From: Candidatus Hydrogenedentota bacterium
GTDB lineage: Bacteria; Hydrogenedentota; Hydrogenedentia; Hydrogenedentales; SLHB01
Direction: 5' to 3'
NCBI GenBank assembly: GCA_034408725.1
Contig: JAWXCN010000125.1
Coordinates: 1 to 28,212, forward strand
DNA: 28,212 bases
Of this stretch, positions 27 to 4,630 are shown piece by piece. The position numbers were made by a program, and so were the translations under genes. The notes under the pieces are model-generated. The model was given only the letters and a program-made list of their open reading frames with translations, was not told where the DNA came from and ran no database searches. Numbering within the stretch: position 1 is the stretch's first letter; each line of letters starts with the position of its first letter.

Positions 27-62
27 ATCGACTGATTGAATCTCATACGAAGAGGATTTTCC

Positions 63-1340
63 ATGCGGTCCGCGCTCCAGCACCACCGCAATATCACCCC
101 GGCCGTGATCGACGCCCTCGCCGATACGCCCGTCGTGGTGATTCATGGCGCGCGCCAAACGGGCAAGAGCACCCTTGCGCGCTCCATTGCCGAAGGACCG
201 CATCCCGCAACGTATATGTCATTCGACGATCTGACCATATTGGGAATGGCGAAGGATGACCCGGCAGGGTTCATCGCGGGACTGACGGGGCCCGTGGTGA
301 TAGATGAGATTCAACGGGTGCCCGATCTCCTCCTCGCAATCAAGGCAAGCGTGGACCGCGACCGGAGGCCTGGCCGTTTTCTGTTAACCGGATCGGCGCA
401 CGTGCTCAATCGTCCCCGGTTGGCTGATACCTTGGCGGGACGCATGGAAGTGCTGACGCTCTGGCCGCTATCGCAGGGAGAACTGCATTCCACAAAAGAA
501 ACGTTCATTGATCGCCTTTTCGCAAGCGGGCCACTGTCGCCCGTGGCGCAACCGAAGGTCTCTCCGGCGAGCATGCTAGACCGGATAGTTCAGGGGGGAT
601 TTCCGGAAGCCACTGCCCGGACCAACCCGGATCGGCGCAGGGCGTGGTTTGGCGCGTATATCAGCGCGGTTATCGAACGTGAAGTACGGGACCTCTCGAA
701 CATTGCCGGACTGACGGAACTGCCGCGGCTGCTTTCGCTGCTTGCGGCGCGCGCGGCGGGGTTGCTGAATTATGCCGACCTCGCGCGCGACGCGGGGCTG
801 AATCAGATTACGCTTAAACGTTACGTGGCGTTGTTGAACGCAGTCTTCATGACCATCAATGTCCGGCCGTGGTTTGCGAACCGCGCCAAACGCCTGATGA
901 AATCGGAGAAGGTGTATCTGGTCGATACTGGATTGCTGGCGCACTTGTTAAACGTCACGCACGAGGATATCGCGCAGGACGCGCACGCGAAAGGCGCGCT
1001 GTTCGAGAACTTCGTGGCGGTCGAAATTCTCAAGCAGCGCACGTGGTCTGCGACGCGCCCGGATGTGTACCATTTTCGCGACTATTCGGGAAACGAGGTG
1101 GACCTTGTACTGGAGGCGCCGGGAGGACGGAAAGTTGTGGGAATCGAGGTGAAGGCCTCCGCAACGATTCGAAAAAGGGACCTCACGGGCATGATGGTGA
1201 TGCGCGAAGCACTCCGCAACAAATTCCATCGTGGCGTCGTGCTTTATAACGGCGATACCATCGTGCCCTTTGGCAATGATATTTATGCCGTTCCCATTCA
1301 GCATTTGTGGGCCAACGGCGCGAGCGCGAAGAAAAAATAG
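63..1340 (+). CDS. ATP-binding protein, AAA_14 + DUF4143 family, with a C-terminal PD-(D/E)xK-like domain
   Basis: Walker A GARQTGKS, Walker B VVIDEIQ, LLTGS, LAGR, GGFPE, DTGLL, GALFEN and EVDLV..GIEVK motifs; AGAGGA SD favours ATG 63 over TTG 36. Confidence 0.9.
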   Translation: MRSALQHHRNITPAVIDALADTPVVVIHGARQTGKSTLARSIAEGPHPATYMSFDDLTILGMAKDDPAGFIAGLTGPVVIDEIQRVPDLLLAIKASVDRDRRPGRFLLTGSAHVLNRPRLADTLAGRMEVLTLWPLSQGELHSTKETFIDRLFASGPLSPVAQPKVSPASMLDRIVQGGFPEATARTNPDRRRAWFGAYISAVIEREVRDLSNIAGLTELPRLLSLLAARAAGLLNYADLARDAGLNQITLKRYVALLNAVFMTINVRPWFANRAKRLMKSEKVYLVDTGLLAHLLNVTHEDIAQDAHAKGALFENFVAVEILKQRTWSATRPDVYHFRDYSGNEVDLVLEAPGGRKVVGIEVKASATIRKRDLTGMMVMREALRNKFHRGVVLYNGDTIVPFGNDIYAVPIQHLWANGASAKKK

Positions 1341-1366
1341 ACCCGGCGGGGTGCGCGTCCCCGGCT

Positions 1367-2128
1367 TCATCGGAGCCAATACTCCTTTGCGGCCGGGGAC
1401 GCGTTTTCGATCTTGCCAAAGCGGCGTTCGCGGCGATGGAACTCGTGGACGGCCTGGCGAAAATCCGTGTCCGAAAAATCGGGCCACAAGACGGAGGTGA
1501 AATACAGTTCCGCATAGGCGCATTCCCATAGCAGGAAGTCGCTTAATCGTTGTTCGCCGCCGGTGCGGATCAACAGGTCTACGTTGGGGACGGGACGGGT
1601 ACTGCCATCGCCCGCGAGGTACTGTGAGAGGCCATCGGGATTTTGCCGCTGGTGTCCGAGGTATCGACGGGCAGCGGCAAGAATGGCATCGCGTGATGAA
1701 TAATCCAGCGCGATTCGAAGGTCAAGCCGTGTGCCATGCGCAGTTGCCGATTCAGCCGCTGCTATACTTTTCAGGAGCGCGTAGTCCAAACGCTGGCGTG
1801 AGCCGATAACTTGCATGCGCACACCCTCGCGCAGGCATCGCTGCTGCTCGCTATCGATGAATTCTCGCAGCAGCATCATCAGGTTTTCGACTTCATCGGC
1901 GGGGCGCGACCAGTTGTCGCGCGAAAATGCATAGAGGGTGAGCGCTTGTACGCCGACGGATGGCGCGGCTTCGACAATGCGCCTCACCGATTGTGCGCCT
2001 GCCCGGTGGCCTTCGGCGCGGGGTTGGCCCAGCGATGTTGCCCAGCGGCCGTTCCCGTCCATGATGATTGCGACATGTATGCCCTTGGTCGAGGGTAGAT
2101 ACTTGGCGGCGGTAAGTACACGGCGCAT
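1367..2128 (-). CDS. uppS: Isoprenyl transferase (cis-prenyltransferase, UppS family), divergent paralogue
   Basis: HVAIIMDGNGRWA, GHRAG, LYAFSxxNWxR, DLLIRTGGEQRLSDFLLW, LWPDF and RRFG motifs; GGAGGGAG SD upstream of ATG 2128. Confidence 0.93.
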   Translation of the reverse strand: MRRVLTAAKYLPSTKGIHVAIIMDGNGRWATSLGQPRAEGHRAGAQSVRRIVEAAPSVGVQALTLYAFSRDNWSRPADEVENLMMLLREFIDSEQQRCLREGVRMQVIGSRQRLDYALLKSIAAAESATAHGTRLDLRIALDYSSRDAILAAARRYLGHQRQNPDGLSQYLAGDGSTRPVPNVDLLIRTGGEQRLSDFLLWECAYAELYFTSVLWPDFSDTDFRQAVHEFHRRERRFGKIENASPAAKEYWLR

Positions 2129-2176
2129 GCTATTGTCTCCCTCCAAGTCTGACTCCCGGCATCTATCGACAAAGAC

Positions 2177-2191
2177 CTTTGTACTACAAAG
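2177..2191. promoter_or_regulatory. Palindromic operator candidate CTTTGTA-C-TACAAAG (CTTTG-N5-CAAAG) upstream of uppS
   Basis: Perfect 7-1-7 inverted repeat; the same motif recurs at 3240-3254. Confidence 0.65.
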
Positions 2192-2200
2192 AGCGAATCC

Positions 2201-2229
2201 AAAAAAAGAGACAGGCGCGGGCGCCTATC
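2201..2229 (-). terminator. Intrinsic terminator after the wHTH regulator gene
   Basis: Minus strand GATAGGCG-CCCG-CGCCTGTC forms an 8-bp stem with one G-U pair, followed by TCTTTTTTT. Confidence 0.6.
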
Positions 2230-2593
2230 CTTCGCGCACGCGCCGGATTAACGATTCCATGTGCGCAAGATATTTCTCGAGCGTTTTCCGGCCTTTATCC
2301 GTAATCTTGAAATCGGTCTTAGGCATGCGCCCTTCAAAATATTTGGTGCAGTCGATGTATCCTGCCTCTTCCAGTTTGCGCGCATGCACGCTAAGGTTCC
2401 CGTCGGTGGTGCGAAGAATCCGTTTTAGTTCGTTAAACGACAAGGTTTCGTTCACTGCGAGGGCGCTCACGATCGCCAGGCGCAGCCGCTCGTGTATTAC
2501 GCGATCAAATGCCGTAGTCTCGACCGGGTCCGCTTTGCGCGCAGACGGAACGCGTGGTTCGCCCCGTTTTGCTGTATTTGTTTTACCCGCCAT
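2225..2593 (-). CDS. Winged helix-turn-helix transcriptional regulator (HTH_34 / ArsR-MarR-like)
   Basis: FDRVIHERLRLAIVSAL, LSFNELK, TDGNLSVHARKLEEAGYI, K-F-GRMPKT, TDKGR motifs; ATG 2593 with GAGG SD overlaps the upstream gene end by 11 nt. Confidence 0.9.
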   Translation of the reverse strand: MAGKTNTAKRGEPRVPSARKADPVETTAFDRVIHERLRLAIVSALAVNETLSFNELKRILRTTDGNLSVHARKLEEAGYIDCTKYFEGRMPKTDFKITDKGRKTLEKYLAHMESLIRRVREG

Positions 2594-3200
2594 ACTTCCT
2601 CGCAATGATATATCCAAAGACAAGTTGCATGCCGCCGAATCCCGCTGCCATAAACCAGTCACCCCACGCTTGGGGCGCCAATAGCGCCGCGATACCGAGG
2701 GCGGTGATGCACGCGCCCATCACGGGCACGATGCGCACGGAATAAGCACCCGCGGTAACGACGCCGGCCCCGTAGAGGAGTAGCCACGCGCCGGGCATCA
2801 GGCCAAAATTTCCGTCCCGGTAAAAGACGAGTGTGAACACCACGCCGGCGCCGAGTGTGGGGATCAAGCCCAGCCAGAACCGCCGGCCCGGGCTGTCAAA
2901 AACCGATTCATTGGCTAGGCGGGCCTTTGTGAGCATGGCTGCAAACCCGCAAGCGACCGCGGCTGATGCAGTGGCTATCCACGTCAGCAACCACCCGTCG
3001 GCATGGGGGGCCATGCGCGCAGCGCCAGCGCCAATGAGCGCGACGACGCCCATACTCACGGTGCCCCAGCCCGGCACGGCAGTAAACGAAGTTGATCGCT
3101 CCATGGTTTCGCGGATGAACTTGAGATTGTCCATTGCGAGGACATGCAGATTGACTGGGTCGTCATCCGGTTGTGGTGCGGGCTTTGGCGACGGGTTCAT
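2583..3200 (-). CDS. Uncharacterised integral membrane protein (~6 TM, 205 aa)
   Basis: N-terminal DNLKFIRETMERS helix followed by six hydrophobic segments; coupled to the regulator; ATG 3200 lies 7 nt after a -10 box. Confidence 0.8.
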   Translation of the reverse strand: MNPSPKPAPQPDDDPVNLHVLAMDNLKFIRETMERSTSFTAVPGWGTVSMGVVALIGAGAARMAPHADGWLLTWIATASAAVACGFAAMLTKARLANESVFDSPGRRFWLGLIPTLGAGVVFTLVFYRDGNFGLMPGAWLLLYGAGVVTAGAYSVRIVPVMGACITALGIAALLAPQAWGDWFMAAGFGGMQLVFGYIIARKYGG

Positions 3201-3207
3201 GGGGGCA

Positions 3208-3236
3208 AGTATACCGCGGGCCGGGTGGTCTGTCAA
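3208..3236 (-). promoter_or_regulatory. Sigma70-type promoter TTGACA-17-TATACT, apparently leaderless
   Basis: -35 at 3236-3231, -10 at 3213-3208, 17-nt spacer, then TGCCCCC and the ATG; no SD. Confidence 0.8.
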
Positions 3237-3239
3237 GTG

Positions 3240-3254
3240 CTTTGCGTTGCAAAG
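3240..3254. promoter_or_regulatory. Palindromic operator candidate CTTTGC-GTT-GCAAAG, 3 nt upstream of the -35 box
   Basis: 6-3-6 inverted repeat matching the site at 2177-2191. Confidence 0.65.
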
Positions 3255-3364
3255 GCAACGCGGCGCGCGTGCGGAGGGGCGGTCAATGCTCTACAGTAGC
3301 CTGGAGACACCGTTGCCGCGTGGTGCTCCAAACAGGTGCAGTTGCGGCGTCAAGGGAAACACCA

Positions 3365-4630
3365 ATGACCGTTTTGATTACCGCGATGGCAATTGCCATG
3401 ACCGTATCCGCGTTGTGTTCGCTGCTCGAGGCAACCTTGCTTAGTCTCACCCCGACCCAGGTAGCGCAAATGGCGGAAACGCATCCAGGGGCGGTCTCCA
3501 CTTGGCAAAAACTGAAGGGCGACATTTCCAGGCCGATAGCAGTCATTCTCGTGTTTAACACGTTGTCGCACACTGTCGGCGCAACAGTTGCGGGCGCGCA
3601 ATTCGAGAGTCTATATGGAAAAGAATGGTTGGCGGTGTATTCGCTGGTGTTTGCCGTTCTCATTCTGCAGTTCACCGAAATCTTACCAAAGACGCTGGGC
3701 GTGCGGTATAACACCGCCATCGCGCCGGTCACCGGATGGATGTTGTACGCGGTTGTGCGCGCGACGTCTCCGCTGATTGCATTGATCAATCTGATGAACC
3801 GGCCTTTTGAAGGACGGGGCCGCAAGGAGAATCATCGTGAAACGGTCGAGGAGATCGCGTCGCTTGCGGGGCTGGCGCGTCTGTCGAAGCTGATTGGCCC
3901 GCACGAGGAGCGGATTATCAAGAATGCCACAAAGATGGCATTTACCGAGGTAGGCGATGTAATGCTGCCGGTCGATCAGATTACGTTTTTAACCACGTCT
4001 CAAACGATGACTGACGCCGTAATGACGGCGCATTGGGATCCGCACACGAGATTCCCTATTTGCGAAGACGGGGACCATGATCGGGTGTTGGGTTACATCA
4101 ATTTCAAGGAAATGGTGTATCGCGCGCGAACGAACCCCGCGGATCCGAGTCTGCGCGGCATCATCCGTCCAGTTCATTTTGTGGCGAAAGACGAATCGGC
4201 GGCGGAGTTGTTGCGGATGTTTGTCGAGCAACACGTACACGTGGCGCTGGTACGCGATGAAAAGGGAAAAACCCTCGGACTTATTACCATGGAAGACTTG
4301 GTTGAAGAATTGGTCGGAGAATTGGAAGACGAGTTTGACCGGTTGCCGCGGATGTGCCACGCGCTCAGCGGGGGCACGTGGATGGTTGGCGGCGGGTTTC
4401 CAGCCTCGAAACTTGACGACGTGCTCGGGGTTCCGCTTGAAAACGTGCGGGGCAGCACGTCCGCGTGGCTCATTGAGCGCATGGGCCGGTTGCCAAAAGT
4501 AAACGAGATATACCGCGAAGCGGGGTGCGAGATATTGATTCGGCGCACGCGGCGTGGCAAAATTTTTGAAGTCGCGGTATCGAAAGCGCGCGTGGGCGTT
4601 GTTGAGCCCGGCGGCGTGACACGGGACTGA
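3365..4630 (+). CDS. CNNM/hemolysin-family membrane protein (DUF21 + CBS pair + CorC_HlyC)
   Basis: SALCSLLEATLLSL, ILVFNT, FTEILPKTLG, HTRFPI and GLITMEDLVEELVGELEDEFD motifs; AAGGGA SD before ATG 3365. Confidence 0.9.
   Translation: MTVLITAMAIAMTVSALCSLLEATLLSLTPTQVAQMAETHPGAVSTWQKLKGDISRPIAVILVFNTLSHTVGATVAGAQFESLYGKEWLAVYSLVFAVLILQFTEILPKTLGVRYNTAIAPVTGWMLYAVVRATSPLIALINLMNRPFEGRGRKENHRETVEEIASLAGLARLSKLIGPHEERIIKNATKMAFTEVGDVMLPVDQITFLTTSQTMTDAVMTAHWDPHTRFPICEDGDHDRVLGYINFKEMVYRARTNPADPSLRGIIRPVHFVAKDESAAELLRMFVEQHVHVALVRDEKGKTLGLITMEDLVEELVGELEDEFDRLPRMCHALSGGTWMVGGGFPASKLDDVLGVPLENVRGSTSAWLIERMGRLPKVNEIYREAGCEILIRRTRRGKIFEVAVSKARVGVVEPGGVTRD

Follow-up and report, generated by a model that had tools for sequence, protein, structure and literature searches.

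Why does a bacterium carry a second gene for an UppS-type cis-prenyltransferase directly behind a small regulator gene, and what do two copies of one palindrome do at such a place? The question is raised by a 28,212-nt contig from a Candidatus Hydrogenedentota bacterium (JAWXCN010000125.1), which is called the window here. Three genes in a row encode a membrane protein, a winged-helix regulator of the HTH_34 family and the UppS protein. The palindrome CTTTG-N5-CAAAG is found once ahead of the promoter of the first gene (operator O1) and once between the second and the third (operator O2). An initial annotation of this DNA had proposed that the membrane protein and the regulator form an autoregulated pair controlling an accessory uppS through the shared palindrome. 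All of the elements it described, namely the promoter, the genes, the terminator, both palindromes and a third half-site next to each, are present (Table 1), and its interpretation is partly supported overall. With moderate confidence, we read the locus as one case of a widespread, unnamed module in which the HTH_34 protein would be an autoregulated repressor of a polyprenyl-lipid and envelope regulon, with O2 blocking read-through into uppS.

A gene pair and its operator in three phyla

The pattern CTTTG-N5-CAAAG matched only twice in the window and not at all in 100 dinucleotide shuffles. In the 5.17-Mb genome it matched three times, twice at the module, as against seven matches for a reversed control pattern. 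The pattern is not frequent genome-wide but concentrated at the module. The third genomic copy (C255:10848) lies inside an open reading frame (ORF) and was taken as chance.

The membrane protein was found in 22 of 60 related genomes of the same order. The regulator gene is next to it in all 22, and uppS follows the regulator in nine of these loci. A scan with the regulator, taking one genome per species, added 80 loci from Acidobacteriota, Gemmatimonadota and Hydrogenedentota; in 78 of them the regulator gene is again preceded by the membrane gene, and the other two are cut by a contig end. Removal of three duplicates left a pooled set of 100 non-redundant loci. Wherever the flank is long enough, the two genes lie side by side, usually overlapping, and UppS is encoded behind them in 49 of the 100 loci across the three phyla, whose members live in soil and sediment. 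The co-occurrence of three genes that the initial annotation had looked for is thus borne out; the pair is constant, the unit is wider than three genes, and uppS is one of several alternative cargo genes.

The operator is conserved at both positions. Sites were counted with at most one mismatch across the two half-sites, within 160 nt upstream of the membrane gene or within 300 nt after the regulator gene. Of the 96 loci whose upstream flank is long enough, 75 have an operator ahead of the membrane gene, and 50 of 98 have one behind the regulator gene; elsewhere in these loci, only 13 sites were counted in 755,541 nt. The third half-site recurs as well. In the NNCTT that follows the 75 upstream palindromes, C was found 73 times, T 72 times and T 70 times, and after the 50 downstream palindromes the corresponding counts were 40, 48 and 42. 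The 20-nt form of the motif (at most one mismatch) gave 26 matches in 61 related genomes, 20 of them inside module loci. Of these matches, 24 were in the 23 genomes that carry the module and two in the 38 without it, compared with 52 scattered matches for the reversed control. The operator is essentially confined to module-bearing genomes.

The regulator matches PF13601 over model positions 1–80 of 80 with 95.8 bits (cut-off 27), and is the only HTH_34 match in the genome. It is made up of a winged helix and a variable basic tail, with no separate ligand domain. Across 28 sequences from the three phyla, its recognition helix, TTDGNLSVHARKLEEAGY, hardly varies, which fits an invariant operator. 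These features of the sequences make it very likely that the HTH_34 protein binds the operator.

A weight matrix derived from 33 sites in other genomes ranked O1 first in its own genome and O2 within the four best. The remaining two of these four are both strands of one double palindrome on contig C35, ATTTG-N5-CAAAG-TA-CTTTA-N5-CAAAA, with four half-sites (C35:47645-47682; L053 2646-2682). This best off-locus match suggests that a full operator may consist of two palindromes with TA between them. The site is directly next to a TTGACG and lies ahead of an 88-amino-acid ORF for a two-helix membrane protein, which was not found in 40 relatives and was not counted as a member of the regulon. On the same contig, a repeat family of about 100–130 nt (gaaattgaaaccacgg...) was seen by eye at L053 about 1600-2300 and 2700-3500, in intergenic positions around small antitoxin-like ORFs.

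Table 1. Features of the module. Positions refer to the whole 28,212-nt stretch; the module genes are all on the minus strand.
Feature	Position	Strand	Basis
Operator O1, 15-bp palindrome CTTTG-N5-CAAAG, CTTTGCGTTGCAAAG	3240..3254	.	exact pattern match
Third half-site CTTGA, 2 nt (CA) past O1, running into the -35 box	3233..3237	-	sequence reading
Sigma-70-type promoter TTGACA-17-TATACT of the membrane-protein/regulator operon	3208..3236	-	11/12 consensus positions
-35 box TTGACA; -10 box TATACT	3236-3231; 3213-3208	-	promoter scan
Membrane protein, 205 aa, ATG at 3200, six hydrophobic segments	2583..3200	-	ORF
HTH_34 winged-helix regulator, 122 aa, start 2593	2225..2593	-	PF13601, E 1.7e-27
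Intrinsic-terminator-like element: hairpin 2230-2209 and CTCTTTTTTTGG; T-run 2207-2201	2199..2230	-	
Operator O2, second palindrome copy, CTTTGTACTACAAAG, 9 nt past the T-run	2177..2191	.	exact match
Third half-site CTTTG (perfect), 2 nt (GT) past O2	2170..2174	-	sequence reading
Accessory cis-prenyltransferase (UppS paralogue), 253 aa, ATG at 2128	1367..2128	-	PF01255, E 5.8e-75

The end of the membrane gene and the start of the regulator gene overlap by 11 nt, and the stop codon of the regulator lies inside the 9-pair hairpin of the terminator, which is directly followed by CTTTTTTTGG. The uppS gene likely starts at its ATG behind the Shine-Dalgarno sequence GGAGGGAGA (2144-2136, about 25 nt beyond the third half-site CTTTG) rather than at a TTG at 2146. 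Taken alone, neither signal of the window is significant: the promoter is the sole promoter-like site in 1200-3500, with a shuffle mean of 0.9, and for terminator-like sites the shuffle mean is 2.8. The arrangement is beyond chance because it is conserved in other genomes. Another terminator-like match lies inside the membrane-protein coding region (2660-2677, minus strand, seven pairs, weak T tail) and, given the same shuffle mean, is probably a chance match. A search of 1300-3450 against Rfam gave no match at E<=1. Nine sequencing runs were found to contain this DNA, all of them DNA runs and none RNA.

From the operon promoter to a proposed read-through into uppS

The upstream operator stands in a fixed relation to a promoter. 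At 66 of the 75 upstream sites, a promoter with at least eight of twelve consensus positions was found, always at one and the same distance from the palindrome. Sixty sites are of a type (type A) in which exactly 3 nt separate the palindrome from a -35 box, with a TAnnnT -10 box 16–18 nt further on; the -35 box reads TTGACA in 35 of these and TTGACG in 17. In four loci (type B), the -35 box lies 7 nt ahead of the palindrome and the right half-site, TAAAGT, forms the -10 box. An in-frame ATG or GTG follows the -10 box by 6–9 nt in 52 of the 60 type-A loci, and in the window this distance is 7 nt. In most lineages, the window included, the mRNA of the membrane protein is thus predicted to lack a leader.

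Repressors classically bind over core promoter elements. The HTH_34 protein probably represses, because its operator overlaps the core promoter in the four type-B loci and covers the -35 box and spacer of all three unlinked CreD genes described below. For the autoregulated repressor of the initial annotation, it is this geometry that fits repression. Activators are also known at sites just upstream of the -35 box, and the palindrome of the 60 type-A loci lies there, 3 nt away and not over the core promoter. The regulator could then activate the operon promoter in a positive feedback loop, which we consider very unlikely. The -35 boxes are already at or near consensus and are paired with good -10 boxes, a combination for which activation is rarely required. 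The -35 box is overlapped by the conserved third half-site, the type-B and CreD operators cover core promoter elements, and activation at O1 together with a block at O2 would be incoherent.

At the downstream operator the surroundings are different. A T-run (at least six T in seven) precedes 41 of the 50 downstream palindromes, at 9 nt in 33 loci, 7 nt in seven and 12 nt in one, compared with only two of the 75 upstream palindromes. At this place, inspection by eye found GTCTCTTTTTTTG repeatedly in different phyla. No recognizable promoter is attached to the second operator: nothing past O2 in the window makes a convincing sigma-70 promoter for uppS, and the comparison of loci shows no recurrent one, with no offset repeated more than three times among the 50 sites. 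In loci whose sequence was read, the next start codon comes 13–45 nt after the palindrome, and in ten loci the only possible start codons of uppS lie 11 nt before the palindrome or inside it. Because there is no recurring promoter and little or no room for one, the cargo transcripts appear to come from upstream, through the T-run and the operator. We tentatively take O2 to act on read-through rather than on a promoter, at slightly less than an even chance.

The other possibility at this site is that O2 is the operator of a weak uppS promoter, with a -35 box in the end of the T-run and a -10 box in the right half-site (yAAAGT), the T-run being merely the terminator of the upstream operon. The type-B loci have this same geometry upstream (TTGACA, 7 nt, palindrome, TAAAGT as the -10 box), the spacing constraint between -35 and -10 boxes would account for the constant gap from T-run to palindrome as well, and the strong hairpin before O2 in the window would make a separate promoter useful. 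In addition to the missing promoter at a recurring offset, this explanation has to face a T after the right half-site in only 26 of the 50 sites (it is G in the window), and a -35 box of the form TTTGNN, which by our reading matches the consensus poorly. The ten uppS genes that start at or before the palindrome would also be out of reach of a later start site. We regard a promoter at O2 as unlikely overall, although one may exist at loci such as the window with its strong hairpin.

In the mechanism that we propose, a strong sigma-70 promoter would drive a probably leaderless, translationally coupled operon for the membrane protein and the regulator. One or two dimers of the regulator would bind CTTTG-N5-CAAAG together with the third half-site CTT 2 nt further on, and repress. 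At O1 the third half-site overlaps the -35 box, by which the pair would limit its own synthesis. At O2 the bound repressor would be a roadblock that stalls polymerase arriving from the operon promoter with its active centre in the U-tract, and termination would be both reinforced and made repressor-dependent. The distance from a roadblock to the stalled 3' end is about 13–15 nt. The accessory UppS would be made only once the repressor leaves the DNA. With read-through gated in this way, the basal transcription of the sensor operon, which limits itself, would not spill over into the cargo genes.

Bound regulators inside transcription units are known from other systems. LacI roadblocks and the controller protein C.Kpn2I are reported to stop the elongating polymerase within a transcription unit and to lower downstream expression, and roadblock-induced termination is a concept treated in a review of transcription roadblocks. 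Unlike in these systems, the operator of the module lies a fixed 9 nt past the U-tract in 33 of 50 loci. The fixed spacing suggests a roadblock coupled to an element of an intrinsic terminator, a coupling for which one literature search found no description.

Accessory UppS and the wider regulon

The genome has two PF01255 genes by profile search, the copy in the window and one on contig C251. The C251 copy stands in the row Ribosomal_S2, EF-Ts, an amino-acid-kinase-family protein (in the position of UMP kinase), RRF, UppS and CTP_transf_1 (CdsA). The window copy is not in a frr-uppS-cdsA context; it follows the regulator and faces an AAA_14/DUF4143 gene. As the initial annotation had anticipated, gene context supports the window UppS as the accessory copy and the C251 copy beside frr and cdsA as the housekeeping one. 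Wherever one of the 60 relatives has two whole PF01255 genes, the second is the module copy, and each of five tested genomes from other phyla has exactly two UppS genes.

The window UppS matches PF01255 over model positions 1–219 of 219 with 252 bits (cut-off 27) and TIGR00055 with 246.5 bits (cut-off 109.55). Its best NCBIfam model is NF011412, at 333.1 bits just under the cut-off of 334; the housekeeping copy is above the cut-off of NF011405 (319 against 304). It aligns end to end with Escherichia coli UPPS (5CQB and 1JP3, E 1.3e-62) and keeps HVAIIMDGNGRWA, LTLYAFS..NW.RP, RTGGE.R.S.FLLW and RERRFG, which we take to be the substrate and catalytic motifs. The window copy is 39% identical to the housekeeping copy of its own genome and 50–69% identical to other module-linked copies. 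In a quick maximum-likelihood tree, with five duplicate rows left out, 49 module-linked and six housekeeping copies are split by a branch with a value of 99 in the Shimodaira–Hasegawa-like approximate likelihood ratio test (SH-aLRT). Two loci (L092 and L115) have UppS ORFs of 468–511 amino acids with an N-terminal extension that has no Pfam match. In one Bryobacterales genome, the module-linked uppS is directly followed by a gene for a reverse transcriptase/maturase of a group II intron (L089 5849-7450).

Other loci carry other cargo, and the counts are lower bounds, since not every downstream ORF was scanned. A DUF4153 gene, placed after UppS or directly after the regulator, was found in at least 15 loci, a geranylgeranyl-reductase-like flavoprotein in at least 19 (best model TIGR02032, 116–126 bits, below the cut-off of 158.8), and a CreD-like protein, often with MacB/FtsX permeases, in at least 18. 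IspH followed by DUF4153 was found in one locus (TIGR00216, 239.8 bits, cut-off 187.85). Six loci of Thermoanaerobaculia type (L074, L083, L085, L102, L103 and L117) have an ankyrin-repeat gene between the regulator and UppS. Ten of the 13 strong DUF4153 genes in the relatives are in module loci; among the unlinked ones, one has an operator and two do not. In two Gemmatimonadaceae loci, DUF4153 is followed by a gene of the heme-related chlorite-dismutase family (L060 6812-7636 and L067 5945-7570). Homology between DUF4153 and the CreD-like proteins was considered and was not detectable (hhalign probability 0.1%).

One operator match outside the modules led to a full-length CreD gene in the close relative G003. 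The 60 relatives have three full-length CreD genes (515–521 bits), all in module-carrying genomes and unlinked to the module. In all three, the operator covers the -35 box and spacer with the best weight-matrix scores seen (28–33); the left half-site forms a TTTACA -35 box, which is followed after 16–18 nt by TAGTAT or TATATT. None of nine weak CreD-like genes in the relatives has an operator.

Because the same operator precedes genes for DUF4153, CreD, the geranylgeranyl-reductase-like enzyme and IspH in other genomes, we infer that the regulon serves polyprenyl-lipid supply and envelope integrity. The enzymes of the regulon all act on isoprenoid lipids. A study on Burkholderia cenocepacia reports that a CreD homologue rose more than 30-fold when the undecaprenyl pool was fouled and that overexpression of UppS restored growth; a second UppS of this species did not rescue the carrier shortage, and the authors of the study suggest a role of CreD in carrier recycling. 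CreD of Stenotrophomonas maltophilia is tied to envelope integrity in another report. The idea of carrier or envelope stress in the initial annotation fits because one operator would co-regulate an extra UppS and CreD.

The regulon might instead make a specialised polyprenyl lipid of another chain length or nature, with the reductase saturating the product in some lineages. The module-linked UppS copies form their own clade across three phyla, the window copy is distant from its housekeeping counterpart, and in Pyrinomonadaceae-type loci the geranylgeranyl-reductase-like flavoprotein takes the place of UppS. The reported failure of the second B. cenocepacia UppS to rescue the carrier shortage points the same way. 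However, the window UppS can be aligned with E. coli UPPS from end to end, and its TIGR00055 score exceeds the cut-off. CreD, linked to carrier or envelope stress in the literature, is co-regulated. We consider a specialised lipid less likely, but a serious alternative.

Several observations weigh against the reading of the locus as an autoregulated repressor module with a polyprenyl-lipid and envelope regulon and with O2 gating read-through into uppS. No site at one mismatch or fewer was found in 21 of 96 upstream and 48 of 98 downstream flanks, and O2 was undetected in 21 loci that bear uppS. The palindrome of the window lies upstream of the -35 box (about -53 to -39), a position also open to an activator. 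By a crude test, only 19 of 41 loci have a hairpin directly next to the T-run, and the terminator hairpin of the window is strong (-17 to -21 kcal/mol); it might terminate without the repressor, leaving uppS no visible route of expression. The closest relatives, G003 and G004, carry the pair without uppS, and the genome of the window (92% complete) has neither CreD nor DUF4153. The housekeeping set in the UppS tree is small, with six sequences, and the tree is from a quick search only.

The genes around the module differ between lineages. A gene for a CNNM/CBS/CorC-type transporter (3365-4630, plus strand) is divergent from the module, and the 164-nt intergenic region that they share contains O1. 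It lies directly beside the module in L010, L037 and L040 and about 800 nt off in L034; it was not seen beside the modules of the other phyla and is probably lineage synteny. On the other side, the AAA_14 and DUF4143 ATPase gene (36-1340, plus strand) converges on uppS. In G003, where uppS is missing, the same gene directly faces the regulator, which suggests a recent gain or loss of uppS at this junction.

The regulator, the membrane protein and their possible signal

The closest solved relative of the regulator by sequence is PH1061 of Pyrococcus horikoshii (PDB 1UB9; E 5.4e-7 with the single sequence, 4e-9 with a profile), which is itself uncharacterised. ArsR/SmtB and MarR-like repressors are similar in size and of the same fold class. 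Weak ArsR-type matches were found (HTH_5, E 1.5e-6; an ArsR structure, E 3.8e-4), and the ArsR/SmtB metalloregulator model NF033788 gave 26 bits against a cut-off of 55. His34, Cys82 and His111 are conserved in at least 90% of the 28 sequences, and His70 and Glu113 are invariant. These residues could form an ArsR/SmtB-like metal or redox site, or be merely structural.

The membrane protein has no Pfam family at E<=0.01 and no NCBIfam match; its sole Pfam match at E<=1 is Rce1-like (E 0.46). Its profile found nothing better than E 0.15 among PDB sequences, and the ESM Atlas gave only clusters that are unnamed or called 'transmembrane protein', with no structure model. Among 8000 candidates scored, 5801 relatives were found at E<=0.001, all of them unnamed. 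The most conserved part of the protein is its cytoplasmic N-terminal helix, AMDNLRFIRETMER, along with glycine-rich helices and a C-terminal IARRYGG. No invariant histidine or protease-like motif was found among 30 homologues.

The membrane gene is strictly linked to the regulator and translationally coupled with it, and because of this the membrane protein may be the sensing partner of the regulator, a proposal to which we give an even chance. It could also be core cargo, for example in carrier-lipid handling, with the regulator alone sensing a ligand, metal or redox state in the ArsR/SmtB manner. The conserved His, Cys and Glu residues and the weak ArsR-type matches speak for such a regulator, and co-transcription alone does not show binding. 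Yet NF033788 scores far under its cut-off, the regulator has no separate ligand domain, and the two genes are always adjacent and usually overlapping while the other cargo varies. It is also the cytoplasmic N-terminal helix of the membrane protein that is most conserved. Core cargo is the less probable role of the membrane protein.

Some known systems resemble a sensing pair of this kind. In BlaI/BlaR1 and MecI/MecR1, as would be the case in the module, a small winged-helix repressor is encoded beside a membrane protein, has a palindromic operator, regulates itself and has an envelope-related target. Unlike BlaR1 and MecR1, the membrane protein of the module has no protease or penicillin-binding domain, no Pfam match and, among the 30 homologues, no invariant histidine; unlike BlaI, the regulator is an HTH_34 protein and not a BlaI family member. 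Mlc and PtsG, where an integral membrane protein holds a DNA-binding repressor in a signal-dependent manner, may be a working model. The families are unrelated, the genes of the module are translationally coupled in one operon, unlike those of Mlc and PtsG, and contact between the partners is putative here. In the CreBC-CreD system of Proteobacteria, CreD is described as an inducible inner-membrane protein of envelope integrity that responds to fouling of the undecaprenyl pool. Unlike in that system, CreD is found here behind an HTH_34 operator rather than a two-component system, and is co-regulated with an extra UppS.

The signal may be a shortage of lipid carrier or envelope stress, an assignment that we hold to be possible at somewhat less than even chances. 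More speculatively, and with a low probability overall, the new six-helix family could sense the free polyprenyl-phosphate pool, or envelope damage that drains it, and free an HTH_34 repressor that controls both initiation and a repressor-gated terminator (a U-tract with the operator exactly 9 nt behind). The module would then be an on-demand homeostat that raises carrier-lipid synthesis through a second UppS and IspH and supplies CreD or DUF4153 proteins in Acidobacteriota, Gemmatimonadota and Hydrogenedentota. No description of this layout was found among works on uppS with a winged-helix repressor or on second UppS paralogues, as judged from their listings and the opening lines of their abstracts, and DUF4153 and HTH_34/PF13601 appear only in irrelevant papers among those searchable. 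Neither the regulator nor the membrane protein belongs to a characterised family, and the regulon is undescribed in the searchable papers.

The undecaprenyl phosphate pool is small and all envelope polymers depend on it, and how bacteria sense and adjust it is largely unknown. The module is a testable handle on the control of this pool. It brings a membrane-protein family with thousands of relatives in abundant soil phyla together with a paired regulator and a simple, invariant operator, and in its regulon an extra UppS stands beside CreD, for which a part in carrier recycling has already been suspected. DUF4153 gains its first functional context. The module is also a natural test case for a repressor just past a U-tract that makes termination conditional; if this is true, the pairing of U-tract and operator would be a new regulatory device.

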